Positions 4,147 to 31,242 of a DNA stretch of 64,000 nt are shown here, piece after piece. The stretch is from an uncultured virus (IMG/VR IMGVR_UViG_3300035428_000406) (lineage: Duplodnaviria > Heunggongvirae > Uroviricota > Caudoviricetes): IMG/VR virus record IMGVR_UViG_3300035428_000406; one strand, 5' to 3'. Position numbers and translations under genes: made by a program. The stretch's first letter is position 1. The number at the start of each line of letters is the position of its first letter. The notes beneath the pieces were generated by a model that did not search any database, was not told the origin of the DNA, and saw only the letters and a list, made by a program, of their open reading frames with translations.

Positions 4147-7100
4147 ATGGCAACTGACAATAAACGAAAATTATACGATGCCCTCTCGCAAGACTTCGAT
4201 ATGGGCAGTTATGAGCAGTTCTGCGCAGACCTCAACGACGAGGGCAAGCGTCGCAAGCTCTACGACGCGACCAGTCAAGACTACGACCTCGGCACATGGG
4301 ATAGCTTCTCACAGCAGTTAGGATATGGACAGGCCGCTGCACCCGTTCCTGAAAGACCTGCCGCTCCTGTCGATACTCCTGTGTCGTCCACATCGCCAAA
4401 GCCCACTGAATATTTCAAACTACGCCGTGGCGGCAAGGACTTCACGGTATCAACCGACGAGGTAAATGCTGCCGGCGGTCTGTCGTCGTGGGCACAGGCA
4501 CACCCCGGTGCTCCTATCCGTGTCTATATGCAGGGTAAAAAGGAAGACGGGACCGACTTCGACGGTCATGTTGACCTATCCGTAGCCCACGATCGAAGAA
4601 AACGACGTGGCTACAAGTACACAACCACAAGCAATGCTATTGAGGATAAGCCATGGCAACCGACCGAACAGGAGAAAATTGCCATGGCTCATCAGCTCCA
4701 CCAAATGCAAGCGCAGAGCGACGCCATGTTTGCCGAGAATCGCGAACGTATGGAGAATGTCTCCGAGTATTATCGTGGCAACCGTGGCCTCGGCTTCCAT
4801 ACTGTCGAGGGAAAGCCGGTATTCAATCCGCAGACCGGCCAAATGGAGAAGACCTACCTCACGCCTATGGGCGACCGCACAACAAACAAAGCGGCAGCAG
4901 ATATGTCTACGTTCAATTTCCGTCAGGCTATGGCAGCCGCCGATATGTCGGTGGGCGCACAGATACGTCGAGCCGAGGCCGAACTTGCCGAACTGCGCAA
5001 ACAGTTCGAGGATAGTAAGAGCCGTGTTCATGATGAATGGACCGAGGACTACGAAAAAAACGACGCGCCTCTCGCCGCCGTACTTGCTGCCAATACCTAT
5101 GTGCCTCGTCAGACTTCCGACAAGGAAAACTCCGCTCTGCGTGTCGCTATCCGCCAAAGGGAAGAACAGCTCAAGAACTTGTACGAGGAACGAGACAGGC
5201 AGATTGGCAAGGATGTCGGCTTTTGGCGTGGCTTCGGTCGTATCGTCAGCGACAGCCGCACATGGGACTTCGGTACAGGCGACCTGTTGGACGCTATGAC
5301 CATGCTTAATGCCGACCAATATTCAGCCCCCAACGCTACCGAGGGCGAGAAACGAGCCGGTCAAGAAATGCTCAAGGCGGCTTACGATGCACAACAGACT
5401 GAACAAATGTTTGGCGAAAACGCCTCATTCTGGAACAGGGCCGGTGTTATGACCGGCTATATGCCGTCGTTCATGCTCGACTTTGCGCTTACAGGCGGCG
5501 GTTTTGAAGTTGTCAATGTTGCAGGTAAGGCCGCGGCTCGTGGCTCTGCAAAACTGATAGGCGAAGCAGCCATTAAGGAAATGACCGAGTTAGGTGTCAA
5601 AGCCTATGCCAAGAGATACGGTCTCCGTGGCGTTGGCCGTATGGCAGAGAATTGGACTATCAAGGCACTCGGTACGACCGCAGACGAGTTATTGATTCGC
5701 GCTCCGCTCATGACCAACACCATTCAGGCAGGTAAGACCGCCGCAGACATCATCGACCGCAAACTCGGTGATGTGCAAGTTGACGCTAACGGCAATTATA
5801 ATTTTGCCAATGACAAGACTTGGGGCAGTGCTGTTTGGCAGGGGGAGGCCAACGCTATCATAGAGAACTACTCGGAAATGTTCGGCACACACCTTGATGT
5901 GGTTGGACCGGCACTCGTAAAGGCACTTTCAAAGACTTACGGCGGAAAGCGTATCAGCGGTATGCTTGCACGCGCCAATGCGTCGAGCTACGGTCAAATC
6001 CTTGCTACTACTCGCAAGCATTTTGAACGGCTCGGCGTGTCTGACTACTTCGGCGAGGTTGGCGAAGAATACTATGGCCAGCTGTGGCGAACCATGCTCA
6101 ATCTTGAAGACGCATATACCAATGAGCCAGTCTACGACGCAGAGGGCAATCAGGTACTCGACGCAGAGGGCAACCCTGTCTACAAGCGTAAGAACCTATT
6201 GTTTACAGGCCAGTTCCACGGCGATATTTGGGGCGGCATGGCTCTATCTATGGGCTTAATGGGTGCAGGTAAGTACACAATTTCAGGTATAGCCTATGGC
6301 AGCATGAAACATCAGGTCAATGTGGCCGATCGTGTTGCCGCTGAAATATTCACGCCTGAACGCTGGGAGCCTATCCGCGAAATTATTGACAGCACTACCA
6401 ATGAAGACATCGGTACACTTGCCGAAAGCATGGTAAACGACCCCAACCTCTCCGACGAGGAACGTGCGGCCGTCATGGAATATATGGAACGCAGCCTTAA
6501 TCTCCGTGGCCTCAACCTCGGTGCTATGGCGCAGAGCCGTGGTGCAGCTGATGAGGAAGGTGTGGAAATACCTACACCTGTCGAAATGGATATGGACAAC
6601 GAATTCAGTCAGTCCTACATCGACGGCTACGAGGCTTCCAGCCCGCAGGAAATGGCGGACGCACAGAATATGTACGAGTATCAGCGTCAGCGAGCCGAGA
6701 GCATGTTTGAGCCGAGTGTGCTTGAATCGCTCGACAGCAACCCAGTTGCTACTCTTATGGATATGTCGCAGACCGGCCTCTACTCGCAGGAAGAGATAGA
6801 CGCAGCCCGTGACTACATCAATGCCAAGACCGTGCGCGACGGCATTTTGCAACGTGTCAATGACAACATCGACGAGCAAATCGCCCAAAGCGACGCGATG
6901 ATAAATGCCCGTGTCAATCCGGCAAGCGGCATGATACAACCTGCCGTTATGGGTCTCGACGACCGTCAGGTGTACGTTGTAGGCGGCTCGCTCTCTATCA
7001 ATCCCGACGGAACAATAGACCGCGAGGCTTCCGATGAGAGCGTAGTCGTCCGCGACGCTGTGACTGGAGAGGTGGAATTTGTCGATCCAAGGTCTATTGT

Positions 7101-10100
7101 GTCGGCCGGCGAAGCTATCGACCCCGAAATGGAAAAGGCACTTGCCGTCGATAATATTCGCCAACAGGCCGCACAGGCCGCAGCCGACGCTCTGAACGGC
7201 ACACTCGCTTTCAATCCGGGCGACGTTGTGCAAATCAATGACGGCGGCGGTGTCGTTCAGGTTACTGTCCTCGGTCCTATTGTCGATGAAGAAAGCGGTA
7301 TGCCTATCGAGGGTCAGGTAATGGTACAGTTTCCCAACGGACAGCAGACCGCATTTGCCAAAGAGCAACTCCAAGCCTTTGCAGACGCGGCCAATCTGGA
7401 ACGTATAAACGAATTTGAGCAGCAACGTGGAGCCGAGCGCGCACAGCAACAGGCTACTGAAGCCGAAGCCATGCGGCCACAGTTTGCCCTCAATGATGAA
7501 TTTACCATACTCAACGACAACGGGACACCTATTCGCGGCTCGATCACTGCCGAACTCGACGAGGACGGTACTGTGGAAATACACACGGAGGAACCTCTCA
7601 ACGGCAACCATGTGAACCGCCTTACACCTGCCGAACTTGAAGAAATGTTCGACACGTATAACGGTCTACCTGTCTCCCTGCCTGTTCCCGAAATAGAGAA
7701 AACCGTTCCCAATCTTGACGAAATGCCCGAAAATGCAGGGCAAAATGGAGAAATTTCCCCGGAAACCGTTCCCAATCCCGATGTGACAGCAGAGGCAGAA
7801 CCCCAGCAGTCTGCGCTGTCTCGTGTTCCTGTCGATGAACAGGGACAGCGTAACTATCTCGACACTGATGCAGATACAGCGTATGACGCTTTTGTGGAGC
7901 TGTCGGAAGGCGACGAGGCTTTGGCCGCAGAAGTCATTGCCGACTATGTAGAAGAAGCCGAGGACGATTTCAAGGCAGCAGAAAAAGCACTCAACAAGAC
8001 AAAAGAGGGCAAGCCGGAGAAGCGGAAGAAAGGCGACCCCGCGCCGACCGATGAGGAACGAGTGGCCATAAAGAAAGCCGCCAAACAAGCACTCGCAGAG
8101 GCACAGGCTATCCGTGACCGTGCGAAAGCCAACCTCGACCATTGGAAAAAGATTGCCGGCACAAAGCAACGCCGAGAGGCCGACCGCCGAAGCGCAGAGG
8201 ACGCAGAGGCTCGTCGCCGTGCAGCGGAACGTGCAGCAGAGGAAGCACGATTAAAGGCAGAACGAGAAGAAGCGGAGCGTATCGAGCGCGAAGCACTCAA
8301 CGGCGTGCCTGATTGGAATGTCGATACACCCGCCGACGCTCGTGCTCGTGGCTACCGTCGTAATGGACCGCAGAAAGTTGACCGTCCCGAAATCATCGAC
8401 AATCATGCTATCGGCAATTCGATTGAGGTCAAGTTTGGCGACGACGTTATGCCAACAGGCAACATCGCCATTATTGAAGCCTCACAGTTGCAACCGAGCC
8501 ACCGCTACGGTCAACGTAATCCCGCACACTTCCTTGACGAAGCACAACCCAAAGAACGCAAGGATGCAGCAAGCCGTTTTGCAGCAGCCAAAATTGCCGA
8601 AACCATGCGCCCCGAAGAAATCACATCGAGCGTCACGGCCTTTACCGGCGCACCGAGCGTCAACAGCCGTGGCGAGGTTATTCAGGGTAACAACCGAGGC
8701 GAAGCACTCCGCCTCATGTACGAGGGTTATGCCGATTCTGCCGCCAAGTATAAGCAGTATCTTATCGACCATGCCGCCGAGTTTGGGCTTACTCCTGAAG
8801 CTATCGAGGCTTTTGAGCAGCCTGTACTCGTCAATATGCTCGACGTGTCGGACGAAAACGCCATTACCCTCGGCCAGTATGTTGCACAGGACACCGAGAG
8901 CGGCGGGATTGAGCGTATAAAGCCCAAGAACGCAGTGCAGAAAATGGGTAACAAAATTCGCAGCTTTGCAAACCTGTTGCTCCGCTCTGCCGATGATGAG
9001 GCCACATTTGCCCAGCTTGTGGACTCTAACGGCGTTGAGGTGTTGAAATGGATGAATCAACAGGGGTTCATCACAAATACCCAATATGCAAGTGCTTTCG
9101 ATAGCAGAGGCAACCTCACAGCCGAAGCCGCCAACGACCTCAAGGGTATCATGTATCAGTCTATCTTCACAGGTGGAAGCACTCGCCTTGAAGAAATGTT
9201 CAACAAAATGCCGGCAAAAGCGCAACGAGCTATCCTCGCAACGGCCTTCCGCGACTATGACAGTGCTTTCGCTGACCGCATGATCAACGAGATACAGCAG
9301 TCTATTATCGCTTTTGACGCACTCATGGGTTATGAGGCGTTCCGTGAAGCGACTAATGCCGAAGCTACACAGAACGCAGTCGAGGCTTGGAAGTTGCAGT
9401 TCGCCTTTGACGATGTTTCAGGAGAGCCTTATCTTCCCTCGGAAACTTTCAGTAACTTTGCACTCACACTTGCGGCCATGTATAAAGGCCACACCCAAAG
9501 ACATATTCAGTCGGTTTTCAACATGATGTATGACATCGTGCAAGGTACTGAACAGGATAATCTCTTTGAGGCCGCAGACAAGACCCCGAAACCTCTTGCC
9601 GAGGCCATACATCGTGTGCTTAATCTCGAATATCAACCCATAGTAAAACCAACAACTAACAATGGAACAAATGGAAGTGCTGTATTGGACGTCGATAGTG
9701 AAGATGGCCAAGATGGGCGAACAGGAAGCAGTGGAAACACTGACGGCGCAGAACAAAATCCGCAATCAGGAGAACCGACCGACAGTGGAACAGGAGCTGC
9801 AGGCGATAGCAGACAAGGGGGCGAAGTAGCCAACGAGGAAGGAGTCTTTACTCCTGAAGAAATCGAAGCTCTGTCTCACGCCACCTTTACCAACACCGAA
9901 TCGGGACAGACAATCAAACTGACCGGCCACGTTATCATGCCCGACGGCAGAGCCGCCTTCAAGGGCAATATGAATAATGAGCATGGTAGCCAAGGCCGCT
10001 TCATGCACAATCTTATCCGCAAGCTACTCGACAGTCCGTCATGGACGACCGACGCCGTAATGCCGTCGGCAGCACAAGAAAGCGAGCAACACGACTTTGA

Positions 10101-13100
10101 CGACCTCGACAACTCTGCGTTGGCCGAGCGTATTGATGTGTCCGATGATGATTGGACTGAGGGAGAGGACCAGACACCCACTTACAAGCGCACAATCACT
10201 ATCGACGGCAAGCACCAAGTCATTCAGATCGACGAACCCGACGGCAATGGCTTCTACATTGGCTCACGCTTCGAGTATCAGGGTGAACACTTCGGTAGCC
10301 TTACCGAAGTGATAGACCACATCGACAAGCAGGCTCAACTCGCCGCTAACATCGCCGAAGCTGAAGCCGAGGTTAACACCGACCCAACACCGGGACAGAA
10401 GGAAGCGGGCAACTATAAGAAAGGCCATGTGCAGGTTGGCACATTCGACGTGACAATCGAAAATCCAAGAGGTTCAATTCGTCGCGGTACTGACGCTAAC
10501 GGAAAAGAGTGGCAGACCGAAATGAAGAACACCTACGGCTATATTCGTGGCACTGAAAGTGTTGACGGCGACCACATCGACGTATTCCTTGCTGAAAATA
10601 TTGATGAATGGAATGGCCGCAGAGTATTTATTGTCGACCAGTACAACGAGGACGGCACATTCGATGAGCATAAAGTCATGCTCGGCTTTAATGACAAGGC
10701 CGACGCTGTAATCGCATACCAATCCAACTATGAAGACGGCTGGATGCGCAAGCGTCGTATTGTTGTCAATTCCGTAATCATCGAAGACTTCGAGAAATGG
10801 ATTGAGAGCAGCCACCGCAAGACAAAACCATTTGCCGACTACACCATATCGCAGCGAGGAGAGACCGAAGAAGTCGGTGGCAGCAGCAACGAAGATAATC
10901 AAGACAGTAACGGCTTGATAAAACTCCGCGAACTTCTGACATCAAAAGGCATGAACTCGGACGGTGTTGCCAATGTTGAAACAGTTGTAAAAACTTTGGC
11001 AAAACAACTTTCGGGAAATCTCCGGCTTCGCTCAATACTTGACAGCAATGGTTATGATTGGCAAAAGGAGGAGGCTGCAATGAATCTTGTCGGTGACTTA
11101 ATGAACGACCGCATGTTGAGTGGAGCAGAAGAAACTATCGACATACTGTTCAAAAGCGAGCCTTACAATGAAGCAATCAGAACGGCAATTGCTCATGAGG
11201 CACTTAACATTCTGATTGATCAGGATAACATCGCAATCGGGAACAGTACAACTCAAAGCAATGGTTATACTATCTCTGCCAAACCGTACACCAACAAGCA
11301 GCAGAAAACGCTCGACACCTATCTTGTTACCTTTGAGCGCGAGTTGAGCAAGGAAGAAAAGAAAGCAATGTCGGCCACAGCTCGCTCCGATTTTAAGGGT
11401 TGGTATGATAAGGAGACCGGCGGTTTTATGCTCCGAAGCCGTGAGGACGCCGAGGCTTTCGCCCAAAAGTATAACATCACAGATGAATCTCCGCTGTCGG
11501 TTGATGATATGCGCCCGGCTGAAGCAGCTGTGGAACAAACATCAACGGAACAGGCCAAAGAAGATGTTGCCGAAGACGACAACGAAAAGCCGGTCAATCC
11601 GAGTGGCAACCGTATTGTGACTGATGAACAGTATGCCGACTATCTCGCCCGATTCAAGAAGAAGCTCGGTGGACAGCTCAATATGGGTATCGACCCCGAA
11701 ATTTTACAACTCGGCGCGATGATGGCTGTGTACCACATCGAAAAAGGCACACGCAAATTTGCCGCCTATGTCAAGGCTATGATACACGACCTTGGCGAAA
11801 TGTCGGATAAAGTGCCGTACCAGTATCTCAAAGGCTTCTACAAGAACGCCCACAACATGCTTGAATTTGACGCGCCCGATATTGCCAAGGAAATGGACAG
11901 TGACGAGGTCGTCAACGCTACCGATGTCGCCGCAATAGTCAGTGGCCATATCGACGCTATTGCCACAGCCGAAATGGTAACCGCCGAGCAACAGGCAGAA
12001 GCAGAACGTTCCGAGGCAGAACGCAAACTCAAAGAGGAACGCAACAAGCGTAGAACCAACGCAGACGGTTCTACCACCACGACTATCAATGAGGGTGGTA
12101 CGGAGATAGAAATAACCGAGGGTGACTTTATACCCGGAGTGCTCCCAACTCTCGATACCGAGAAGAAACCCTCCGTCAAAAAGAAACCCGGCAAAGCAAA
12201 ACCGAAGCCAACGACCGACGACGGTTTGTTTGATACCGTCGAGGACGACGCAACGGTAGCACCAACTATCGCCGTACCAGAACAGCGACCTGCTGCAGAC
12301 CTCATCGGCGATTCTGCCGCATATCAGGAGCGAGAGGCACAGACCGTTGAATTGGTAGAGGAAATCGGCGGCGTGATTGAGAACCGTGTCGACATGCTTC
12401 AGCTCGATTCTGAAAGCGTGAAACCTCTTACCATGACCGATGTTAAGAAAATGGCCGCGAAGTATCCCGCCCTCAAAGATATTAGCGACACCGACCTTCA
12501 GGAACTTGTCGAGCTTGCGATGACACAGCTTACGCGCTCCGAAGCCCTTGTTAACATCGACAGCACAGCCGAGCAGCAGCGGTCAGCCTACGACCGCATT
12601 GTCAACCTGTATCAGATACAGCCGAGTCTCAACGCACGCGACAGTGAACGCCTCATCAAGCAGCAGTATTCCACACCTACACCTTTCGGCTTCGTAATGG
12701 GCCAATTCGTCCGCGCCGGAGGAAAGGCCGTTGGCAGTATGCTGGAGCCAAGCGCAGGTAACGGCGCACTCACAATTACCGTACACCCGTCTGTCGTCCA
12801 TGTGAACGATATAGACGACGCACGGCTTGCCAATCTTCGCAAACTCGGCTACGGACAAGTGACAGCACAGGACGCACTGTTGCCTTTCAATGGCGATAAG
12901 GTGGACGTTGTTATGACGAACCCACCGTTTGGCACTGTAACTGAAAAGGTATACGACGGCATTTTCCGTGTTTCGAGCCTTGAGGGCCAAATGGCAATCA
13001 ACGCTCTGGAGCAGATGAAAGACGACGGTCGAGCCGCAATCGTGATAGGTGGAAACACAAGTTATCGCACAAATGGCTCGATGAACCCCAAAGATGCCGC

Positions 13101-16100
13101 ATTTTTTGGCTATCTTTACAGCCACTATAACGTCACAGATGTTATCAACATAAGCGGCAAGGCTCTATACTCTCGCAATGGTACAGGCTACGATGTGCGC
13201 ATGATACTGATTGACGGACGCAAGACCGGCGAATTTCAGCGTGTCTATCCACCCGTCAAGGCCAAAGCTCGCGCAGAGCAGGTAACAACATTTGACGAAC
13301 TTTATAAACGTGTTCAAGATGATATACAGCAAATTCAGCAAATGGGGCGTCAGTCTGCCGATGTGCAGCGAGACCCTGAAACAGCCGCTGACGGAACAGC
13401 GGGTGCGCCTGTTCGTTCAGGAAACAATCGTCCGAACGCAGGAGCAGGGCAACGACCCGGTACAACAAGCAATGCAGTCCGAGATACACCCCGGACCGAT
13501 AGCGGACAGTCTACACCCACAAATGACAGCCAACGACCTGTTGGAGTGGATAATGCAGACGCAGGAAATGCAGGAAGCACTGATAATGTTCCGCAACCAA
13601 AGCCCCAACAGCCCCGAAGCGTCGGAAGTGGAAGCACACAAGATGGAACAGGAAGAAGTGGAAGCGATGGACGTGGAGCAACTTCTTCTCGACCTGACCG
13701 TGGCGCAGAGCGACTGGAGGTAAAACCCGACCTCACTACCGAGAAAGTACCATATCCCAACCAAAGTGACAACGGTTTTACCCTCATGTCGGTAGTGCCG
13801 GCGGCACAGGCAACGGTACTACAAAAGAGCCTCGGCGAAATCGGAGACGTAGACCAATACCTCGTAGATGAGCTTGGCTATTCGAGTAAAGATGAACTTT
13901 ACAAATATCTTGCAGCCGAGCAGATAGACTCCGTTGCACTTGCCATACACCAAATGAATAAGGGCAACGCCTTTATCATCGGCGATATGACAGGTGTAGG
14001 AAAAGGCCGTCAGGGTGCGGCCCTCATACGTTATGCAGTTAAACAGGGCAAAGTGCCTATTTACTTCACGCAGAAACCTACACTCTATACTGATAACTAC
14101 CGAGACCTTGCAGACATCGGCAGCAGTGATCTCCGTCCGTTCATTATAGCGTCCAACGCCAAAGACGCTAATATCGTTGACGCAGACGGCAATATCGTTC
14201 ACAAGCTCCCGTCGAAGAAAGAGCAAGAACGTGTGTATAACTACATCATGGAGCATGGCACACTTCCTGATGAGTACGATTATGTACTTACCACATACGA
14301 CCAAATCAAGAATGGTACAGCCGACTATGCACAGAATGAAGACGGCACATGGGCAATCGGAGCGCGAAAGCTGCCAAAGAACAGCAAGGGCTACACAACT
14401 GCCGACCATAACGGTCAGACGCGGCGCGATGCACTCGCAAGACTCGCAGAGGGCAATATCGCCATACTTGACGAGAGCCATACCGTTGGCGGCGATAGTG
14501 GCTGTGGCCGCTATATGCAGATGTTGACATCACAGGCCGGCGGTGTCACATTCCTGTCAGCTACATTTGCGAAGCGCGCGGACAACATGCCTATATATGC
14601 ACAACGTACTGCAATCGCAGAAGCCGGTGTTAAAGCCTCTGAACTGATTGAGGCTATTATGAAAGGTGGTGTTACCTTGCAGGAAATCATGTCGAAGCAG
14701 TTGGTTGAATCCGGCCAAATGATAAGACGTGAGCGCAGCTTCGAGGGCGTGACTATTGATTGGTTAAGTGTAGAGGAAGAAACAAACCGCCGTCAGCGTG
14801 AGCAGTTTAACGAAGTCGCCAACATCTTCAACGCCATTCGTAACTTCCAAGACGACTACATCACACCGATAATCGACGCCAAAAACGAAGCAGCCGCAGA
14901 GTTTGGTGCAACCGTAGGCCATACACAAGGCACAAAGGACTTGGGCGTTAAGAATGTTCCATTTGCCTCGAAGATGTATAACCTCGTCAATCAGTTGCTC
15001 TTTGCCCTGAAAGTGGACGCTGTTGCTGACCGTGTAGTAGAAAACCTGCGTAATGGCTACAAGCCTGTTATCAGCTTCACAAATACAATGGAAGGCTTCT
15101 TGTCATCAGCTCCGAAAGGTGTTGCTATGGATGATGTGCCTAACTTCTCGCTCACTCTCATGCGAGCACTCGACGGAGTAATGCGTTTTACCGAAAAGGA
15201 CGCAGACGAAAATAGCGAGGGTGGTACTATATCTTTGAGCGACCTTTCGGCAGAGGGGCAAAATGCCTACAATGCAATTCGTGAAAAGATAATGAACCTT
15301 AGTGCCGACCTGCCAATATCTCCTATGGACGCAATCCGCATGAAGATAGAGGAAGCCGGTTACAGCGTCGCCGAGATAACAGGACGCACTATGCAGCTCA
15401 ACCGAACCGAGGACGGCCGATATATCGTTGAGGCTCGAAAAGACCGAGATAAGAAAGCCGCCATGCGTGACTTCAACTCAGGCAAGCTCGATGTGTTGAT
15501 GATTAACAAATCAGGCTCTACGGGCATATCGCTTCATGCGTCAAGCAAGTTTGAGGACCGTCGTCCCCGTGTCATGGTGTTTGCTCAATTCCAGAGCGAC
15601 ATTAACGACGAGGTGCAAATGCGAGGCCGTATCGACCGCAGCGGACAGGTTACCCGTGGCCGCTACGAATACATCATGTCGACAATCCCGGCAGAGCAAC
15701 GTATTCAAATGATGTTCAAGGCCAAGTTAAAGAGCCTCGACGCAAATACAACATCGTCGCAAAAGTCGAAATTCAATGAAATGGAGATTGTTGACTATCT
15801 AAACAAGTACGGCGATGAAGTTGTGTGGGAATACATGAAAGAACACCCCGAACTTGCAGAACGTCTCGGCGATCCGTTGAATATGCTTCAGGAGAAAAAC
15901 GATGAAGACGGGCCTCGCACGTCTGACAAAGAGGACACATCGAAGAAGTCGGGCTGCGCAGGTAAAATTTCGCGCTATCTTGCTTTCCTTTCCGTTGAGG
16001 AACAGGACGAGATATTCCGTGAAATCACTGAAGCCTATCGTGTGAAAATCCAGCTTCTTGACGACGCCGGAGAAAATGACCTTGAAATCACTACGATGCC

Positions 16101-19100
16101 ACTACGCGCCGATACCAAGCGCAAGCAGATTTGGCACGACGGAGAAAACCCCGGCAGCGGCAACGCTTTCGCCGACAACACCTATGTCGAAGAAGTCGAG
16201 GTTGACGTACTGAAAAAGCCGATGAAGCGCAGCGAAATAGCGGAAGCAACTCGCAAATTCATGGGAGAACACTATGCCGAATTAAACGGCAGCGTGGATT
16301 GGCAGCACTATATTCGCACCAAAGGCGATGAGATTGAACTATTCTTCCAGGCAAAGGCAAACGAAGCCGTCGGTAAATTGAGAGAAGCCGGAGAAGCCCG
16401 TATCGCCAAAGCAAGAGAAAAAGCGGTTAGTTCTGCAACGAAAGCAAGAGGGCGAGGCGAAAACAACTTTACTGACGAGGAAATTCAGTCTCTCGCTGAT
16501 ACCGTTGCCAATGAGGAACGCCTAAAGGAAGAACAGAAACAGCGTAAACGCCACGAAGAAATCATGGCTGTAAAAAATCGTATTCTGTCGTTACTCAACA
16601 GTCTTCGTGCGGAAAAAATCTATGTCGTGCCGCAAGACCTTAAACAAGGTACTGCGGAAATGTTCTCGCAGACATTTGGTACATTCGTTGGTTTCAAATT
16701 CAACAAGAGCTATACGCTCGGCTCTTCGACCGCAATATTCGCGACACTCGACGGCCGTCGTAAAGTTGAACTGGCGTTGAGCGATTCTGCAATCAACACT
16801 ATAATGGGCGCGACGGAAATTGCCTACCGCTATTCTCCGAAAGAGATTAACGCAATCACTATGGAGAATTGGGATAGTAATGTACCTACGCAGACACGTC
16901 AGAAGCGGTACATCATTACCGGCAATCTTCTTCAGGCTCTCGTTGATACCGAGAAAGGCGATAAGACCAGAGGCAACCTCATTAATTATTCCACTATTGA
17001 CGGAGAAACACGTCAGGGTATCCTTATGGGCGAGAATTTCAAACTGACCGACCTGCGCAACAGCGCACCGTTGAGCAGTCGCCTCGCCCAGATAAGAGAG
17101 GGCAAAGCCATAGTCAGCGAGAATGGTGACGTGCAGATCGAGCGTGAAATGTACGATTGGCGACATCGTGGCGAATATGAATTGCGCGTACCGAAGTCAA
17201 AGCAACGCGGTGGCATTTACACAATGCACCCCGACCTGTTGAAACTCGTAGACGGTCACAACTTCATAACCAAAGGCAACAGCATGGTTGCGTATGTAGC
17301 CGAGGCTGATATTGCCAAAGTGGTGGATATGTTGAGCCGTGCGCCGTTCAACCTTACAGTGCTGCAAGAGTCGAAGCTATCGGACGTTTCAGCAGATGAA
17401 GCAGAGGACGATGTCCTGTGCCGCCCTGTGACCGATAAGGCCACCCTTGAACACCTGAATAGCGAACCCACAATCAAGGTCTACCGAGCCATGCAGATTA
17501 TTGACGGAGGTCTCCGTCCGCCAATGTCGGCAAGAGTAAGTGGGAAACTGCGCGAGGCTACTGAAATCGGTGTATGGGAAGAAGCAGAGGAACGCCCGGA
17601 ACTCGCAGACGATAAAGGCAAATTCAAACTCAACAAGGGTAATGGCAAGACTATCGACGCCGCATATAATCCCTATATCCATACGTCACGGTCGCCTATA
17701 AACGACCAGTTCAGTAGCGCATGGAGCCGCCCCGAACTTGTAACGGTCGAGGTTGAAGTTCCGGCGAGTGAGTTGACAAGCGAATACCATGCAGAGAAAG
17801 CTAAAGACAGCGTTGGAGAAAAGGAATGGAAGAGCGGTCCCGTAGGTCGCGCACTGGCCAAGGTCGGTCAGGTGCGTAAAGTCATACTTAGCCGCTGGAG
17901 CAGAGTTGTCCGTGTCGTTCCTATCGAAGAAGTAGCCGACGCTTTTGCACAGCGACTGAACGCCCACGGTATAGAAGTGCCGTTTAACACAGTGCCCCCG
18001 GCTCTGCGCGACGCACTTGTTGAACGTGGCGTGAAGATTGGCAAGCCTGAAAACAGCAATGCCGGTAAGGCTTCAATGCCAGCTTTCGAGCAGTGGATAC
18101 TCGAACAAGAGCGTCAGCGAATGGGCGACGGCTACGGTGCTTACAGCGACGCAGAGGTATCGTATGCCAACGACCCTATATCAAAGGTAATGGGCAAAAA
18201 CCGTTTCAGCAAGAAGCGTCAGGCCGAGTTTGCCGCTCGTGAGCGTCAGCGCATGGCGACCCGTATTCAGGAGCTTGCAGAGCGTATGCACCTCAACAAC
18301 GTGGAGATTCTCACGGACGCTTCACAGCTTGAAGGCAAGAGAGCCAAAGCAAAGGGTTTCTACAACAAGCGCACAGGCAAAATCACAATCGTAATCCCGA
18401 ACAACATCAGCACTATCGATGCAGAGCAGACACTTCTCCATGAAGCCGTGGCACATTACGGCTTGCGTCAGCTTTTCGGAGAGCAGTTTAATACGTTCCT
18501 CGATAACGTGTATGATTCTGCGGACGAGAGCATACGTCGCAAGATAGCAGAAATGGCCGCTAAAAACGGCTGGGACTTTCGCACTGCAACCGAGGAATAT
18601 CTTGCAGGACTGGCCGAAGATACTAATTTCAGCGAGGCGCAGAACTATTCGGGTTGGTGGTCGAAAATTAAACGTCTGTTCCTTTCTATGCTTGAAAGCA
18701 TAGGTTTCGAGGGTTTCCGCGACAAGACGGGTGTTGTCTTGACCGACAACGAACTTCGCTATATCCTATGGCGTAGCTATGAAAATCTTGCCGAGCCGGG
18801 CCGTTACCGCAGCATACTCGGAGAGGCCGCAGACGTAGCCAAGCAGAGCGAGTTGAAAGTCGGCAACTATGCAGAGCAAGGTATCGAAGCAGATTATGCC
18901 GCAGAGGGCGACATGTATCGTTCCGGCGACTTTTCGCCCCGTGACCGTGTGTTTGCTCGCTATGCCTACGAGAGCATGGTGAGAAGTGGCAGCTATCAAT
19001 TCAAAGAGGCCGTTCAAGATAGTATGTTAGGGCTTAAGAAACTCTATCAGGCTATTCTCGGCAGGAATACCCGAATTGAAGATGTCCCCGGCTTTGAGAA

Positions 19101-21861
19101 CGCCTACCTGTTTGAAAACCGCATGAGCAGTATGAATGCCGGAGAACAACACGAATACTTCCAACGCTATATGCAGCCGCTTCTGCAAGAGATTGGCCAC
19201 ATAGCCGGAGCAAACAAGCGCAAACGCAGGGAACTGACCGACTACATCATGGCCAAGCATGGTCTTGAGCGCAACGAATATATGCGCAACGAGGCGGCCG
19301 CCAACGGCGAGGAAACCGACCGCGACTTTGCCGGACTTATCGGGCTGACAGGTGAAGCCGATTGGCAGAGCGCAGAAGATACTGCACGGCAGTGGGTTGA
19401 CGACTACGAAGCCATGTATGACACAGCACCACTGTGGGAAGCTATCAACAAAGCGACAAAGGCCACACTCGAAAAAGTGTATATTTCAGGTATCATCAGT
19501 AAGGAGACATACGAGAAGATACTTGGAATGTATAACTACTATGTTCCTCTGCGCGGTTGGAATGAGAAAACGAGCGACGAGGTGTATGGCTACCTGACAA
19601 GTAAAGACGGCCCACTCGGTGGCAGTATCATGAAAAAGGCAGAAGGCCGTGAGAGTATGGCCGACGATCCTATTGCCACAATCGGCATGATGGCCGACGA
19701 CGCAATCCGTCAGGGCAACCGCAACCTTATGAAACAGCGTTTTCTCAATTTCATACTCAACCACCCCAGTGACGCTGTTAGTGTGCATGACCTGTGGCTC
19801 GAATACAACGACGTTACCGGCGAGTGGGTTCCTGTCTTTGCAGACGTTGAAGAAACCGATACCGCCGACGTGGTAGAACAAAAGGTTAAGGACTTCGAGG
19901 AGCGCATGGAAGCATTACGCAACGCCGAGCCTGACAAGTATAAGAGAGGCCGCGAGGCACAGCACATACCGTACAAGGTTGTGCGTGGCAATCTCCGCGA
20001 ACATCAGATACTCATCAAGCGCAATGGCCGTACTTCCGTCGTTACCATAAACGGTAATCCGAGAGCGGCACAAGCAATCAACGGCCTTACCAATCCCGAC
20101 GTAGATCAGAATGGTATTGTCGGCAATATGTTGAAAGCCGGTACTTGGGTTAATCGTCAACTCTCGGCATTTTACACCACTCGTAACCCTGACTTTGTTG
20201 TAGGCAACTTCTTCCGCGATATGTTGTACTCCAACTGTATGACATGGGTAAAGGAAAGTCCGCGATACGCTCGACGCTTCCACAAGAATTTTGCTCGTGT
20301 AAATCCTATCGTAATGCGCCGTCTTCTTGGCAAGTGGGAGAAAGGCACACTTGATATGAGCAATCATATTGAGAACCTGTTCTATCAATTTATGAAGAAT
20401 GGTGGCGAGACCGGCTATACTAACGTCCGCGACATCGAGGGACACAAGAGAGCTGTCGCAGCCGAACTGAAGAAACAAAGTAGCACAGGCCGCCGAGTGT
20501 GGACCGCACTCGGTATGCAGTTAGACCTGCTCAACCGTGCCGCGGAGAACTGCGCCCGCTTCGCCGCTTTTGTTACCTCTCGTGACTTTGGCCGCAACAT
20601 CGACCGAGCAATCTATGACGCAAAGGAAATAAGTGTCAACTTCAACAAGAAAGGCAGTGGCGGCAAAATGGTTAACGCCACCGGCCAAACCAAACTCGGC
20701 AAGACGGGTGCATATCTTAGCGGTGGTGGCCGTCTCCTGTATGTGTTCTGGAATGCCGGTATTCAGGGTATGACCAACTTCGGCCGTCAGGCAAAATTGC
20801 ACCCGGCAAAATTCTCCGTGGGAGCTACGGCCTTGTTCACACTCGGCTATGTTATTCCCATGCTTGCCCAAATGGTAGGCGGTGGAGACGGTGACGATGA
20901 CGACAAGAACGCATATTACAACCTGCCTGAATACGTTCGTCGTTCAAACATCTGCTTCTATGCCGGCGACCAATGGATAACGATCCCTCTACCTATTGAG
21001 TATCGTGCCATGTACGGTATGGGAGAGCTTGCGCACGGTGTAATAAGCGGCAACGAGCGTTACAGCAATTCCGAACTTGCCCGCCAAATGACATCGCAAG
21101 TATCGCAGATTTTCCCGATAGATATGCTTGAAGGTGGAGGCGGTGTTTCTCCATTCATACCGAGTGCGGCCAAACCGTTTACCGAAGCCTACATCATGAA
21201 TAAGGGTTGGACAGGCTTACCCGTCTACAAGGATACTCCATACAACAAGAATATGCCTGAATGGACGAAAGCCTATGCAAGTGCCGACAAACATCTTGTG
21301 GACTTTGCCAAGTGGCTAAACGAGACATCAGGCGGCGACGACTTCAAGAAAGGCTCAATTGACATTAACCCTGCCAAGATTGAGTATCTACTCAACGGTA
21401 CTTTCGGCGGTCTGTTTACTTTCCCTAACAAGGTGAAGAAGTCCGCAGAGACGGCCTTTGGCGATCGAGATTTTGAGTGGCGAAATATGCCGATTGCCAA
21501 CCGCCTTATCAAGTCAGGCGATGAGCGTACTGCAAACCGCAAGCTCCAAAACGAGTATTTCAAGTACAAGAAAGAGTATGAAGAAATCGGGGAGCGTATG
21601 CGCAAGTATGAGAACGCCGACGAACAGGGCATAATGGGCTATGCCGAGAAGATAGACTTTTTAGAAAATTCTCCTGAATACGCTCGTTGGGAAATTTTCG
21701 ATGAGTTTAAGGCAGACCTCGACTCGTACAGAGAAGACCTCGCAATCGAGACTGACGTGGAAGAACGCAAGCGTATTGAGGCGGAAATGTACGCTGTAAT
21801 GCGTGAACTTATTAACGCACTCCACAACCCGGAAGCATACCGTAATAGCGAACAGGAATAG
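4147..21861 (+). CDS. Giant polyvalent DarB-like protein (5904 aa)
   Basis: ParB-like GAPSVNSRGEVIQGNNR (~8650); pyrophosphatase-like YGYIRGTESVDGDHIDVF (~10540); MTase EPSAGNG (12745) and NPPF (12919); Strawberry-notch-like SF2 helicase GDMTGVGKGRQ (13981), DESH (14470), QMRGRIDRSGQ; HEAVAH peptidase motif (18439); LPD38-like C-terminus. Confidence 0.85.
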   Translation: MATDNKRKLYDALSQDFDMGSYEQFCADLNDEGKRRKLYDATSQDYDLGTWDSFSQQLGYGQAAAPVPERPAAPVDTPVSSTSPKPTEYFKLRRGGKDFTVSTDEVNAAGGLSSWAQAHPGAPIRVYMQGKKEDGTDFDGHVDLSVAHDRRKRRGYKYTTTSNAIEDKPWQPTEQEKIAMAHQLHQMQAQSDAMFAENRERMENVSEYYRGNRGLGFHTVEGKPVFNPQTGQMEKTYLTPMGDRTTNKAAADMSTFNFRQAMAAADMSVGAQIRRAEAELAELRKQFEDSKSRVHDEWTEDYEKNDAPLAAVLAANTYVPRQTSDKENSALRVAIRQREEQLKNLYEERDRQIGKDVGFWRGFGRIVSDSRTWDFGTGDLLDAMTMLNADQYSAPNATEGEKRAGQEMLKAAYDAQQTEQMFGENASFWNRAGVMTGYMPSFMLDFALTGGGFEVVNVAGKAAARGSAKLIGEAAIKEMTELGVKAYAKRYGLRGVGRMAENWTIKALGTTADELLIRAPLMTNTIQAGKTAADIIDRKLGDVQVDANGNYNFANDKTWGSAVWQGEANAIIENYSEMFGTHLDVVGPALVKALSKTYGGKRISGMLARANASSYGQILATTRKHFERLGVSDYFGEVGEEYYGQLWRTMLNLEDAYTNEPVYDAEGNQVLDAEGNPVYKRKNLLFTGQFHGDIWGGMALSMGLMGAGKYTISGIAYGSMKHQVNVADRVAAEIFTPERWEPIREIIDSTTNEDIGTLAESMVNDPNLSDEERAAVMEYMERSLNLRGLNLGAMAQSRGAADEEGVEIPTPVEMDMDNEFSQSYIDGYEASSPQEMADAQNMYEYQRQRAESMFEPSVLESLDSNPVATLMDMSQTGLYSQEEIDAARDYINAKTVRDGILQRVNDNIDEQIAQSDAMINARVNPASGMIQPAVMGLDDRQVYVVGGSLSINPDGTIDREASDESVVVRDAVTGEVEFVDPRSIVSAGEAIDPEMEKALAVDNIRQQAAQAAADALNGTLAFNPGDVVQINDGGGVVQVTVLGPIVDEESGMPIEGQVMVQFPNGQQTAFAKEQLQAFADAANLERINEFEQQRGAERAQQQATEAEAMRPQFALNDEFTILNDNGTPIRGSITAELDEDGTVEIHTEEPLNGNHVNRLTPAELEEMFDTYNGLPVSLPVPEIEKTVPNLDEMPENAGQNGEISPETVPNPDVTAEAEPQQSALSRVPVDEQGQRNYLDTDADTAYDAFVELSEGDEALAAEVIADYVEEAEDDFKAAEKALNKTKEGKPEKRKKGDPAPTDEERVAIKKAAKQALAEAQAIRDRAKANLDHWKKIAGTKQRREADRRSAEDAEARRRAAERAAEEARLKAEREEAERIEREALNGVPDWNVDTPADARARGYRRNGPQKVDRPEIIDNHAIGNSIEVKFGDDVMPTGNIAIIEASQLQPSHRYGQRNPAHFLDEAQPKERKDAASRFAAAKIAETMRPEEITSSVTAFTGAPSVNSRGEVIQGNNRGEALRLMYEGYADSAAKYKQYLIDHAAEFGLTPEAIEAFEQPVLVNMLDVSDENAITLGQYVAQDTESGGIERIKPKNAVQKMGNKIRSFANLLLRSADDEATFAQLVDSNGVEVLKWMNQQGFITNTQYASAFDSRGNLTAEAANDLKGIMYQSIFTGGSTRLEEMFNKMPAKAQRAILATAFRDYDSAFADRMINEIQQSIIAFDALMGYEAFREATNAEATQNAVEAWKLQFAFDDVSGEPYLPSETFSNFALTLAAMYKGHTQRHIQSVFNMMYDIVQGTEQDNLFEAADKTPKPLAEAIHRVLNLEYQPIVKPTTNNGTNGSAVLDVDSEDGQDGRTGSSGNTDGAEQNPQSGEPTDSGTGAAGDSRQGGEVANEEGVFTPEEIEALSHATFTNTESGQTIKLTGHVIMPDGRAAFKGNMNNEHGSQGRFMHNLIRKLLDSPSWTTDAVMPSAAQESEQHDFDDLDNSALAERIDVSDDDWTEGEDQTPTYKRTITIDGKHQVIQIDEPDGNGFYIGSRFEYQGEHFGSLTEVIDHIDKQAQLAANIAEAEAEVNTDPTPGQKEAGNYKKGHVQVGTFDVTIENPRGSIRRGTDANGKEWQTEMKNTYGYIRGTESVDGDHIDVFLAENIDEWNGRRVFIVDQYNEDGTFDEHKVMLGFNDKADAVIAYQSNYEDGWMRKRRIVVNSVIIEDFEKWIESSHRKTKPFADYTISQRGETEEVGGSSNEDNQDSNGLIKLRELLTSKGMNSDGVANVETVVKTLAKQLSGNLRLRSILDSNGYDWQKEEAAMNLVGDLMNDRMLSGAEETIDILFKSEPYNEAIRTAIAHEALNILIDQDNIAIGNSTTQSNGYTISAKPYTNKQQKTLDTYLVTFERELSKEEKKAMSATARSDFKGWYDKETGGFMLRSREDAEAFAQKYNITDESPLSVDDMRPAEAAVEQTSTEQAKEDVAEDDNEKPVNPSGNRIVTDEQYADYLARFKKKLGGQLNMGIDPEILQLGAMMAVYHIEKGTRKFAAYVKAMIHDLGEMSDKVPYQYLKGFYKNAHNMLEFDAPDIAKEMDSDEVVNATDVAAIVSGHIDAIATAEMVTAEQQAEAERSEAERKLKEERNKRRTNADGSTTTTINEGGTEIEITEGDFIPGVLPTLDTEKKPSVKKKPGKAKPKPTTDDGLFDTVEDDATVAPTIAVPEQRPAADLIGDSAAYQEREAQTVELVEEIGGVIENRVDMLQLDSESVKPLTMTDVKKMAAKYPALKDISDTDLQELVELAMTQLTRSEALVNIDSTAEQQRSAYDRIVNLYQIQPSLNARDSERLIKQQYSTPTPFGFVMGQFVRAGGKAVGSMLEPSAGNGALTITVHPSVVHVNDIDDARLANLRKLGYGQVTAQDALLPFNGDKVDVVMTNPPFGTVTEKVYDGIFRVSSLEGQMAINALEQMKDDGRAAIVIGGNTSYRTNGSMNPKDAAFFGYLYSHYNVTDVINISGKALYSRNGTGYDVRMILIDGRKTGEFQRVYPPVKAKARAEQVTTFDELYKRVQDDIQQIQQMGRQSADVQRDPETAADGTAGAPVRSGNNRPNAGAGQRPGTTSNAVRDTPRTDSGQSTPTNDSQRPVGVDNADAGNAGSTDNVPQPKPQQPRSVGSGSTQDGTGRSGSDGRGATSSRPDRGAERLEVKPDLTTEKVPYPNQSDNGFTLMSVVPAAQATVLQKSLGEIGDVDQYLVDELGYSSKDELYKYLAAEQIDSVALAIHQMNKGNAFIIGDMTGVGKGRQGAALIRYAVKQGKVPIYFTQKPTLYTDNYRDLADIGSSDLRPFIIASNAKDANIVDADGNIVHKLPSKKEQERVYNYIMEHGTLPDEYDYVLTTYDQIKNGTADYAQNEDGTWAIGARKLPKNSKGYTTADHNGQTRRDALARLAEGNIAILDESHTVGGDSGCGRYMQMLTSQAGGVTFLSATFAKRADNMPIYAQRTAIAEAGVKASELIEAIMKGGVTLQEIMSKQLVESGQMIRRERSFEGVTIDWLSVEEETNRRQREQFNEVANIFNAIRNFQDDYITPIIDAKNEAAAEFGATVGHTQGTKDLGVKNVPFASKMYNLVNQLLFALKVDAVADRVVENLRNGYKPVISFTNTMEGFLSSAPKGVAMDDVPNFSLTLMRALDGVMRFTEKDADENSEGGTISLSDLSAEGQNAYNAIREKIMNLSADLPISPMDAIRMKIEEAGYSVAEITGRTMQLNRTEDGRYIVEARKDRDKKAAMRDFNSGKLDVLMINKSGSTGISLHASSKFEDRRPRVMVFAQFQSDINDEVQMRGRIDRSGQVTRGRYEYIMSTIPAEQRIQMMFKAKLKSLDANTTSSQKSKFNEMEIVDYLNKYGDEVVWEYMKEHPELAERLGDPLNMLQEKNDEDGPRTSDKEDTSKKSGCAGKISRYLAFLSVEEQDEIFREITEAYRVKIQLLDDAGENDLEITTMPLRADTKRKQIWHDGENPGSGNAFADNTYVEEVEVDVLKKPMKRSEIAEATRKFMGEHYAELNGSVDWQHYIRTKGDEIELFFQAKANEAVGKLREAGEARIAKAREKAVSSATKARGRGENNFTDEEIQSLADTVANEERLKEEQKQRKRHEEIMAVKNRILSLLNSLRAEKIYVVPQDLKQGTAEMFSQTFGTFVGFKFNKSYTLGSSTAIFATLDGRRKVELALSDSAINTIMGATEIAYRYSPKEINAITMENWDSNVPTQTRQKRYIITGNLLQALVDTEKGDKTRGNLINYSTIDGETRQGILMGENFKLTDLRNSAPLSSRLAQIREGKAIVSENGDVQIEREMYDWRHRGEYELRVPKSKQRGGIYTMHPDLLKLVDGHNFITKGNSMVAYVAEADIAKVVDMLSRAPFNLTVLQESKLSDVSADEAEDDVLCRPVTDKATLEHLNSEPTIKVYRAMQIIDGGLRPPMSARVSGKLREATEIGVWEEAEERPELADDKGKFKLNKGNGKTIDAAYNPYIHTSRSPINDQFSSAWSRPELVTVEVEVPASELTSEYHAEKAKDSVGEKEWKSGPVGRALAKVGQVRKVILSRWSRVVRVVPIEEVADAFAQRLNAHGIEVPFNTVPPALRDALVERGVKIGKPENSNAGKASMPAFEQWILEQERQRMGDGYGAYSDAEVSYANDPISKVMGKNRFSKKRQAEFAARERQRMATRIQELAERMHLNNVEILTDASQLEGKRAKAKGFYNKRTGKITIVIPNNISTIDAEQTLLHEAVAHYGLRQLFGEQFNTFLDNVYDSADESIRRKIAEMAAKNGWDFRTATEEYLAGLAEDTNFSEAQNYSGWWSKIKRLFLSMLESIGFEGFRDKTGVVLTDNELRYILWRSYENLAEPGRYRSILGEAADVAKQSELKVGNYAEQGIEADYAAEGDMYRSGDFSPRDRVFARYAYESMVRSGSYQFKEAVQDSMLGLKKLYQAILGRNTRIEDVPGFENAYLFENRMSSMNAGEQHEYFQRYMQPLLQEIGHIAGANKRKRRELTDYIMAKHGLERNEYMRNEAAANGEETDRDFAGLIGLTGEADWQSAEDTARQWVDDYEAMYDTAPLWEAINKATKATLEKVYISGIISKETYEKILGMYNYYVPLRGWNEKTSDEVYGYLTSKDGPLGGSIMKKAEGRESMADDPIATIGMMADDAIRQGNRNLMKQRFLNFILNHPSDAVSVHDLWLEYNDVTGEWVPVFADVEETDTADVVEQKVKDFEERMEALRNAEPDKYKRGREAQHIPYKVVRGNLREHQILIKRNGRTSVVTINGNPRAAQAINGLTNPDVDQNGIVGNMLKAGTWVNRQLSAFYTTRNPDFVVGNFFRDMLYSNCMTWVKESPRYARRFHKNFARVNPIVMRRLLGKWEKGTLDMSNHIENLFYQFMKNGGETGYTNVRDIEGHKRAVAAELKKQSSTGRRVWTALGMQLDLLNRAAENCARFAAFVTSRDFGRNIDRAIYDAKEISVNFNKKGSGGKMVNATGQTKLGKTGAYLSGGGRLLYVFWNAGIQGMTNFGRQAKLHPAKFSVGATALFTLGYVIPMLAQMVGGGDGDDDDKNAYYNLPEYVRRSNICFYAGDQWITIPLPIEYRAMYGMGELAHGVISGNERYSNSELARQMTSQVSQIFPIDMLEGGGGVSPFIPSAAKPFTEAYIMNKGWTGLPVYKDTPYNKNMPEWTKAYASADKHLVDFAKWLNETSGGDDFKKGSIDINPAKIEYLLNGTFGGLFTFPNKVKKSAETAFGDRDFEWRNMPIANRLIKSGDERTANRKLQNEYFKYKKEYEEIGERMRKYENADEQGIMGYAEKIDFLENSPEYARWEIFDEFKADLDSYREDLAIETDVEERKRIEAEMYAVMRELINALHNPEAYRNSEQE
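9662..9829 (+). CDS. Candidate overprinted 55-aa protein in +1 frame of giant gene
   Basis: A-rich start context CCAACAACTAACAATG; MEQMEVLYWTSIVKMAKMGEQEAVETLTAQNKIRNQENRPTVEQELQAIADKGAK; main frame is a G/S/D linker over the same span. Confidence 0.55.
   Translation: MEQMEVLYWTSIVKMAKMGEQEAVETLTAQNKIRNQENRPTVEQELQAIADKGAK
13319..13723 (+). CDS. Candidate overprinted 134-aa acidic helical protein in +1 frame of giant gene
   Basis: ORF track 13292-13723, ATG at 13319; amphipathic sequence (NDLLEWIMQTQEMQEALIMF...VEAMDVEQLLLDL); main frame is a G/S/R/D linker between MTase and helicase. Confidence 0.6.
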   Translation: MIYSKFSKWGVSLPMCSETLKQPLTEQRVRLFVQETIVRTQEQGNDPVQQAMQSEIHPGPIADSLHPQMTANDLLEWIMQTQEMQEALIMFRNQSPNSPEASEVEAHKMEQEEVEAMDVEQLLLDLTVAQSDWR

Positions 21862-21897
21862 TTAAACAATGGGTAATGCTTATGTGGTGTATATTTG
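21859..21897 (+). promoter_or_regulatory. Putative late promoter for portal
   Basis: TAGTTAA, 24 nt, TATATTTG. Confidence 0.7.
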
Positions 21898-21931
21898 CGC
21901 CCGTAAGCATTACCCTATAATCCAAAATACA

Positions 21932-30606: not shown

Positions 30607-31242
30607 ATGATATACAAGTTGACCGAGATAGCGCGTGATGTTCGCATTGCCATAGACCAAAACATGACGAGTGAACAGCTATTAGCGACTGACGACATCG
30701 AAACGCTGTCGCTTGAGGACATCATACGCTCCAAAATCGTTGAGGCCGTGCGTCGCGTCGAAACCGCCGCCCCCGTCCATTTTTTGGAAGAGGGCCACGA
30801 CTTCGGCGACGCAGTGTATTGGGGCGACCTTGAAAGCGGTTGGGTTCTACTGCCCGACGACTTTATGCGCCTGATAGCATTCCGCATGAGCGATTGGGAG
30901 CGCACTGTCTATGCCGCTATCTCGGTTGATGATCCACTGTATGCAAAACAGTCTTCACGCTATAAGGGCATACGCGGCAACGTGCAGAAGCCAGTGTGTG
31001 CTGTCGTCAATCGAGCCGAGGGCAAGGCACTTGAATTCTATTCATGCAATAGCGAGGACGCATTTGTTTCGCGCGCTTCTTACCTACCATACCCTCACAT
31101 AGACGAGGACGACGGCATAGACATCAGCGAAAGGTGCTACACAGCGGTAGTTTATACCGTGGCAGCATTAGTATTAACCACCTACGGCGAAGCTGACAAA
31201 GCGTCGGCTCTAACCGAATTAGCTAAATCAATCTTACAGTAA
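30607..31242 (+). CDS. Putative head-tail adaptor/structural protein
   Basis: 211-aa ORF between capsid and adhesin genes; LPDDFMRL motif; function from position only. Confidence 0.5.
   Translation: MIYKLTEIARDVRIAIDQNMTSEQLLATDDIETLSLEDIIRSKIVEAVRRVETAAPVHFLEEGHDFGDAVYWGDLESGWVLLPDDFMRLIAFRMSDWERTVYAAISVDDPLYAKQSSRYKGIRGNVQKPVCAVVNRAEGKALEFYSCNSEDAFVSRASYLPYPHIDEDDGIDISERCYTAVVYTVAALVLTTYGEADKASALTELAKSILQ

Follow-up and report, generated by a model that had tools for sequence, protein, structure and literature searches.

The locus described here raises the question of whether a stretch of DNA that is read as a linker in one very large phage protein could also encode a second, much smaller protein in another frame. 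The window, that is, the whole stretch that was analyzed, comprises 64,000 nucleotides (nt) of an uncultured virus of the Caudoviricetes (IMG/VR record IMGVR_UViG_3300035428_000406) and carries a gene at 4147..21861 (+ strand) that encodes a DarB-like polyvalent protein of 5904 amino acids (aa), as defined by its open reading frame (ORF) and its Pfam domains. Inside this gene, referred to hereafter as the host gene, the initial annotation had pointed out a 55-aa ORF at 9662..9829 (+), in the +1 frame and directly after a ParB-like domain, and the ORF is present exactly so. Judging from the comparison of homologous sequences presented below, this ORF very probably codes for a real protein and is nested, out of frame, within the gene of the giant polyvalent protein. 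Its predicted product is an acidic three-helix protein, and the same DNA would specify two proteins in many gut Bacteroidales phages.

The nested ORF runs from an ATG at 9662-9664 to a TAG at 9827-9829, downstream of the ddrB-ParB domain, and lies wholly inside another gene, on the same strand and in a different frame. It coincides with a stretch of the host frame that is rich in G, S, D, T and N (NGTNGSAVLDVDSEDGQ...GGEV), and the hydrophobic-poor linker codons of the host that overlap it (NGTNGS...GGEV) occupy positions 9661..9828 (+). In the +1 frame it is bounded by a TAA at 9644-9646 and by the TAG at 9827-9829. Both stops are built from host-frame Val codons (GTA-A and GTA-G) at the linker edges, in agreement with the earlier observation that the ORF begins and ends at the borders of a G/S/D linker. 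In the phage record PQ571269, only the giant coding sequence is annotated across the homologous place.

Conservation of the nested ORF and selection on both frames

Frame-specific conservation across homologs, which the initial annotation had proposed as a check, was examined in 165 sources, namely the window and 164 further loci (two from a search with the ParB domain plus the linker, two named phage records, 80 viral contigs and 80 genome contigs). The viral and genome contigs were retrieved with an alignment of the ParB domain, the block used being the ddrB-ParB domain together with its conserved helical extension (8398..9639, +), and ParB identity to the window ranges from 92% to 28%. When the window peptide was used as the seed of a jackhmmer search against all six-frame, stop-to-stop pieces of these sources, a full-length match to the nested peptide was found in 144 of the 165 sources holding the ParB-like domain. 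Every one of these matches is in the +1 frame with respect to the ParB frame, directly after the domain, with the host frame open throughout. The 144 matches contain 96 unique peptides, and Met is found at position 1 of the model in all of them except one (143/144).

The nested ORF is retained down to a ParB identity of about 33-49% (L164, L149, L136 and L132), and it is also carried by the cultured Bacteroides phages BKO1-TP3 and BS-TP4. The host domain that comes next differs between loci, and the nested ORF keeps its place behind the ParB-like domain. As a control, four other +1 ORFs of the window were followed through the same sources, and they are uninterrupted in 3, 40, 46 and 4 of the 165, versus 143 for the ORF at 9662. 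Length alone does not set this ORF beyond chance; its conservation across homologs does.

The jackhmmer search gave no full-length match in the remaining 21 sources, which are five truncated loci and 16 distant ones with a ParB identity of 46% or lower; one of the distant sources (L145) presents a partial match of 31 bits to the nested peptide. As a separate observation, ATG-started +1 ORFs are found at the end of the ParB domain in five sources that lack a full-length match (L141, L145, L146, L147 and L160), and some of these ORFs are faintly module-like.

Selection was assessed over 50 codons of the overlap, for which 141 of the 144 rows are ungapped and 95 are unique, using simple pairwise Nei-Gojobori counts of non-synonymous and synonymous differences per site (pN/pS). 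The pN/pS ratio of the 95 unique rows is 1.38 in the host frame, 0.50 in the +1 frame and 0.74 in the +2 frame, and an earlier choice of rows by +1 anchors, which introduces a bias, had given identical numbers. The mean pairwise amino-acid identity over the overlap is 0.53 in the +1 frame versus 0.38 in the host frame. The reverse frames, with pN/pS values of 0.69, 1.32 and 0.78, present stops in 35-44 of the 95 rows. Base entropies at host codon positions 1, 2 and 3 are 1.07, 0.94 and 0.66 in the overlap, versus 0.73, 0.61 and 1.46 in the ParB domain. Host position 3 is consequently the least variable position in the overlap, and position 3 of the +1 frame is the most variable one, the order in this frame being 3 > 1 > 2. 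This is the signature of purifying selection on the nested frame as a protein.

Across the overlap, the host frame is preserved as well. It is open in all 98 unique rows, when the expected chance of an open host frame, with the codons of the peptide redrawn, is 0.03 under uniform codon usage or 0.02 under local usage. Its content is a different matter, as the hydrophobic fraction of the host frame is 0.097 in the overlap versus 0.31 upstream and 0.26 downstream. This hydrophobic-poor stretch spans exactly the overlap for nested ORFs of about 50 to 146 aa, and the next globular host domain begins immediately past the nested stop. The host frame is kept there only open and hydrophilic, which makes the inter-domain linker a frame-shifted shadow of the small gene. 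At the level of sequence comparison, these results show that both frames are kept by selection and that the nested frame evolves as a protein. The initial proposal that the frame overprinted on the linker is a conserved and separately selected coding frame is thus borne out by the homologs and by the pN/pS values. The locus offers a natural case of dual coding with about 95 unique sequence pairs across deep divergence, and it shows that a second gene can leave a low-complexity linker behind as its by-product in a multidomain protein, which affects how linkers and disorder predictions are read.

The predicted nested product, its relatives and the probably older frame

The nested product has a core of about 54 residues and is acidic, with a median isoelectric point of 4.6 and a median net charge of -4.5. 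Residues M1 and E5 are invariant, and W9, A16, G19, A23, L27, R34 and L46 are near-invariant. From 94 sequences, AlphaFold2 predicts a three-helix bundle (helices 3-17, 21-36 and 42-54) with a predicted local distance difference test score (pLDDT) of 94.3 and a predicted template modeling score (pTM) of 0.73.

No family was found for the peptide in Pfam (E<=0.01) or in PHROGs. Its A..W...A..G..EA...L pattern presumably resembles that of SLR. The best match to a repeat of the TPR/Sel1-like kind, TPR_17 in the long homolog P0005 (E 0.021, 15.5 bits), stays below the cut-off of 24.4 bits, and the peptide was not assigned to these repeats. Regarding the fold, a Foldseek search of the peptide model against the PDB gave no matches at E<=10, the best Z score in the wide VIA-align search was 4.7 and corresponds to a generic helical match, and nothing was obtained at E<=0.001 in the BFVD fold search with the model. 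A profile search of the PDB with the peptide yielded a single match with an E value of 1.3, and the search of the ESM Atlas gave no usable match.

A profile search of 1.84 billion representatives recovered 125 proteins at E<=1e-3, 69 of them at E<=1e-10. These proteins mostly have 47-100 aa and begin at M1; some others are longer (150-346 aa) and carry the module at the N-terminus or at most about 20 residues from it, ahead of other sequence, and in P0018 and P0095 the module is present twice. One family member of 55 aa is found at NCBI, where it is named only 'unknown', and two of the long proteins with the N-terminal module (P0089 and P0107) were not found in viral contigs or phage records. 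The repertoire of gut Bacteroidales phages and their prophages gains an uncharacterized family of small proteins, with at least 125 sequence clusters, whose members gene callers hardly ever report because they are located inside a giant gene.

Three of the proteins recovered (P0084, P0088 and P0090) switch between the nested and the host frame part-way through the module. These are probably indels, assembly errors or gene-calling chimeras.

The C-terminal tails of the nested peptides are variable and recur in a modular way. Longer nested forms of 129-146 aa are found in seven loci: L120, L125, L133, L015 (2723-3109); L078, L107, L162 (2723-3160). They add a second helical domain that ends in ...RNPKGW, and the hydrophobic-poor stretch of the host frame is longer to match. 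This second domain aligns with part of P0103, P0107 and P0108 (174-294 aa). The AlphaFold2 model of the long form of L120 (129 aa, 15 rows) has a pLDDT of 71.5, with values of 51-77 in its second half, and is too weak for a fold search.

The module also exists outside the giant gene. A scan of metagenomes for the module gave three loci, of which one (L165) is nested after a ParB domain and the other two are free-standing genes, at 1996-2181 of a 200-kb contig (L166) and at 5002-5171 of a 152-kb contig (L167). Both free-standing copies are about 90% identical to the nested copy of L165 and adjoin unrelated genes, a Y-family polymerase-like ORF and a RelA/SpoT-like ORF. Upstream of the free-standing gene of L166 there is a promoter-like motif (TATCTTTG), and in L167 a stop interrupts the frame that corresponds to the host frame.

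Because free-standing and N-terminally fused relatives exist, the small gene works as an independent unit, and of the two frames it is probably the older and the linker the younger. A fusion of genes across the small gene appears to be the origin of the overlap, not a new ORF born within an older gene: an ancestral gene for the ParB domain and the gene that followed it would have been joined when reading ran through a small gene that was already there in another frame. This suggests a route by which polyvalent proteins could be assembled. Overlapping regions have been described to encode more disorder in the available text of two works (bioRxiv 10.1101/229690; PMC6195259), and, as in viral overprinting, one frame is here ordered and conserved and the other is disordered and fast-evolving. 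What differs here is that disorder, and probably the younger age, fall to the long host frame, the short nested frame being probably the older.

Initiation, rival explanations and possible function

The nested gene is equipped with a start codon and an initiation signal of its own. An A-rich translation initiation region with A at -3 extends over 9645..9661 (+), and among 83 unique start contexts of the family A is found at -3 in 96%, at -6 in 72%, at -12 in 86% and at -13 in 83%. According to the accessible text of Baez et al. 2019 (PMC6847099), A at positions 0, -3, -6, -12 and -13 is a positive determinant of initiation in Bacteroidia. The start region had been described from the outset as typical of Bacteroidetes, and the 83 contexts do fit this adenine rule for initiation that lacks a Shine-Dalgarno (SD) sequence, as far as that text states it. 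A +1 stop precedes the ATG by one to six codons in 115 of the 144 sources, the intervening bases are lineage-specific, and no common slippery motif was found between the +1 stop and the ATG that would define a programmed +1 frameshift site. The peptide would arise by independent initiation at its own ATG through an SD-less, A-rich signal of the Bacteroidia type.

A candidate internal promoter, TAACTTTG, is located at 9453..9460 (+), where it overlaps the host codons S-N-F-A and matches the Bacteroidia -7 consensus TAHHTTTG. Its distance to the nested ATG downstream is about 200 nt, with a range of about 170-205 nt, and 82 of 100 unique rows contain the motif. The third-base entropies at the S-N-F-A codons (0.27, 0.40 and 0.59, versus a mean of 1.47) are the lowest of the 121 codons that could be assessed, save for one Asp column at 0.44. 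This is a hint that TAACTTTG might act as an internal promoter of the nested gene, from which its transcript could possibly be produced.

In three metatranscriptomic libraries from two studies, short contigs are at least 99% identical to parts of 9006-9999, including 9653-9803.

Several points weigh against reading this ORF as a gene. Its length is ordinary, since 14 ATG-started ORFs reach 55 aa or more in the +1 frame of the giant gene, where 18 runs of 61 or more codons are free of stops. At -6, -12 and -13, the start region of the window itself has C in place of A. The promoter candidate sits in conserved S-N-F-A codons and would imply a long leader of about 170-200 nt, and initiation inside a translated ORF of 17.7 kb is mechanistically awkward. 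Contigs from RNA libraries cannot show starts or transcript ends, and carry-over of DNA is possible in them. The pN/pS of 0.50 is moderate and comes from counts that use neither a tree nor a model aware of the overlap. Close relatives are numerous among the loci, which are not independent, and the link to ParB is in part built in, because the 144 loci were ascertained through the ParB domain; of the three loci found through the module itself, one is ParB-linked and two are free-standing. Finally, the sequence and fold searches described above gave no family or fold match that would support a function.

These points bear differently on the explanations that could replace a nested gene. If the ORF were a chance one, its open +1 frame with an ATG would be a by-product of the hydrophilic linker, and there is some logic in this, because a +1 stop needs T at the second position of a host codon (F, L, I, M or V) and a hydrophilic linker is automatically open in +1; the ordinary length and the bounding stops made from host Val codons fit as well. 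However, this accounts for openness only and not for an ATG whose position is shared by all sources but one (143 of 144), and it leaves unexplained the pN/pS of 0.50 versus 1.38, the low variability of host position 3, the confident fold and the free-standing homologs, which makes a chance ORF very improbable. An element acting as nucleic acid, either an RNA structure or a DNA site such as a ParB-type binding site or a packaging signal, could explain why synonymous sites of the host frame are constrained, and the neighboring ParB-like domain is suggestive of a cis site. Nevertheless, the constraint is codon-periodic in one frame only, nucleotide identity is just 0.64 and yet the hydrophobic/polar pattern, the start and the stop are kept, and the translated alignment folds confidently; such an element is hardly credible as the source of the constraint. 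Slightly less remote, and still improbable, is a programmed +1 frameshift at the end of the ParB-like domain that would stop at 9827 and give a fragment of about 1,840 aa with the three-helix module at its C-terminus. The module always follows the ParB domain, P0088 and P0090 hold part of it in frame at the C-terminus of another domain, and the accessible text of PMC5512222 takes polyvalent proteins to be processed into units. A frameshift, though, would need neither a conserved ATG nor an A-rich context, and the +1 stop that stands ahead of the ATG in most sources, with no shared slippery motif, is hard to reconcile with it. The free-standing genes and the longer N-terminal-module proteins mostly begin at the same Met, and P0084, P0088 and P0090 carry only a partial module and look like indel or gene-calling chimeras.

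A different matter is whether a real nested gene has anything to do with the host protein. It could be a passenger of the 'moron' type, for instance an acidic anti-defense protein, and this view draws on the copies of L166 and L167, about 90% identical to that of L165 in unrelated contexts, on the variable and modular C-terminal tails, on the acidic core and on the literature on Rz/Rz1, where embedding is described, in the available text of PMC6139136, as giving no functional advantage beyond coding capacity. Against it stands the constant place behind the ParB-like domain, kept as ParB identity falls from 92% to about 33% and the next host domain changes, a comparison that is biased by the way the loci were retrieved. 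A passenger unrelated to the host protein is considered somewhat unlikely. Because the ORF keeps its place after the ParB-like domain over deep divergence, an accessory role of the nested product for the virion-delivered polyvalent protein is tentatively preferred, with much less certainty than the nested gene itself; the peptide would be a binding partner, an assembly or packaging adaptor, or a regulator of the adjacent ParB-like domain. It might also be a cognate binder or neutralizer of that domain, as suggested by its position only. A complex prediction with the ParB block (33 rows) and the peptide, run with no controls, gave scores of 0.00/0.00 and is uninformative on binding. The idea of a nested gene is testable, as cultured relatives exist and the nested start can be removed with the host protein left intact.

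The giant gene, known systems and a second nested ORF

The Pfam domains of the host protein are ddrB-ParB, InPase, an Sbno-like helicase (AAA_34/Helicase_C_4) and LPD38, and all the matches are above the cut-off (PF18763, 85.8 bits; PF18823, 170.9 bits; PF18857, 152.6 bits; PF13871, 85.9 bits; PF13872, 63.2 bits). The ddrB-ParB domain PF18763 is found at aa 1440-1564 of the protein (E 3e-24; nt 8464-8838). The closest phage records, with about 69% nucleotide identity, label the homolog of the giant gene as 'DarB-like antirestriction'. The portal gene (21869-23908, +; phrog_156, E 3e-109) starts 8 nt past the end of the giant gene and is followed by the terminase and head genes, which places the giant gene in a late or virion neighborhood. 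With several unrelated effector domains in one polypeptide, including DdrB-ParB, InPase and LPD38, the product of the giant gene belongs to the phage-type polyvalent proteins of Iyer et al. 2017 (PMC5512222), as far as the accessible text of that work defines them.

The giant gene contains a second nested +1 ORF of 134 aa at 13319..13723 (+), where a linker separates the methyltransferase part of the protein from the helicase part. Of nine related loci, eight keep this ORF open, and its pN/pS is 0.20, versus 1.98 for the host frame, in seven unique sequences that are close relatives only (79-91% identity). In a codon-phase scan of the 17.7-kb gene with nine relatives, only the 13319 region was flagged, host position 3 not being the most variable there; the scan could assess 1101 of 1175 windows, and the 9662 region lies outside them since the ParB-linker architecture there is common to only 4 of the 9 genes. 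The repeated design of dual-coding linkers that had been suggested from the window sequence thus reappears in the homologs, with the same signature in the 13319 ORF, and both main linkers of the protein are therefore dual-coding. A speculative and rather doubtful extension is that polyvalent proteins grow, as neighboring genes fuse, by reading across small genes and keep them alive as shadow-frame linkers that serve the preceding domain. If this were true, each nested product would act, for instance, as a packaging adaptor, a chaperone or an immunity-like regulator of the domain it follows, and the two unrelated nested genes described here would represent the first instances of a general arrangement that annotation pipelines systematically miss.

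The closest known kind of gene to that at 9662 is the embedded Rz/Rz1 spanin pair. In lambda, Rz/Rz1 is likewise a case of one phage gene lying wholly within another in the +1 frame, where both genes give real products and gene callers usually overlook the embedded one, and separated, overlapped and embedded arrangements of the pair occur in different phages, according to the available text of PMC6139136. The nested module, like the Rz/Rz1 functions, has nested and free-standing forms. Unlike the spanins, however, the nested gene has no sequence, fold or functional relation to Rz/Rz1; its host is a multidomain protein of 5904 aa, the overlap falls on an inter-domain spacer whose host frame is unconserved (pN/pS 1.38), and the same giant gene contains a second, unrelated nested gene.

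With respect to the host, the presence of DdrB-ParB, InPase, LPD38, methylase and helicase parts among late genes is shared with polyvalent proteins and with DarB/DdrB of P1, as described in the accessible text of PMC5512222. Nested linker genes are not part of the architecture described there, and the words 'overlapping' and 'frameshift' appear 0 times in that text. Among the literature matches listed, which do not extend to subscription journals or supplements, none was found to report a gene embedded in that of a polyvalent or DarB-like protein. The small P1 proteins Ulx, DdrA and Hdf are encoded beside DarB/DdrB and are packaged with the anti-restriction protein in an ordered way, according to the accessible text of PMC12810830. 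Their co-packaging with DarB provides a precedent for an accessory role of the nested peptide, but their genes are not nested, and the likeness to the 9662 peptide is a functional analogy only.

Concerning the rest of the window, it corresponds to a temperate Bacteroidales phage of the mouse gut, with genes for an integrase (1-1476), portal, terminase, head protein, reverse transcriptase, helicase and RecT, and mouse-gut metagenome runs contain DNA that is near-identical to it. The reverse-transcriptase gene is found at 40174-41847 (+; phrog_1423, E 8e-57), and a gene for a 2841-aa protein (phrog_14959, function unknown; 31242-39767, +) ends a few hundred bases before it. Both genes might form the arrangement of a diversity-generating retroelement.

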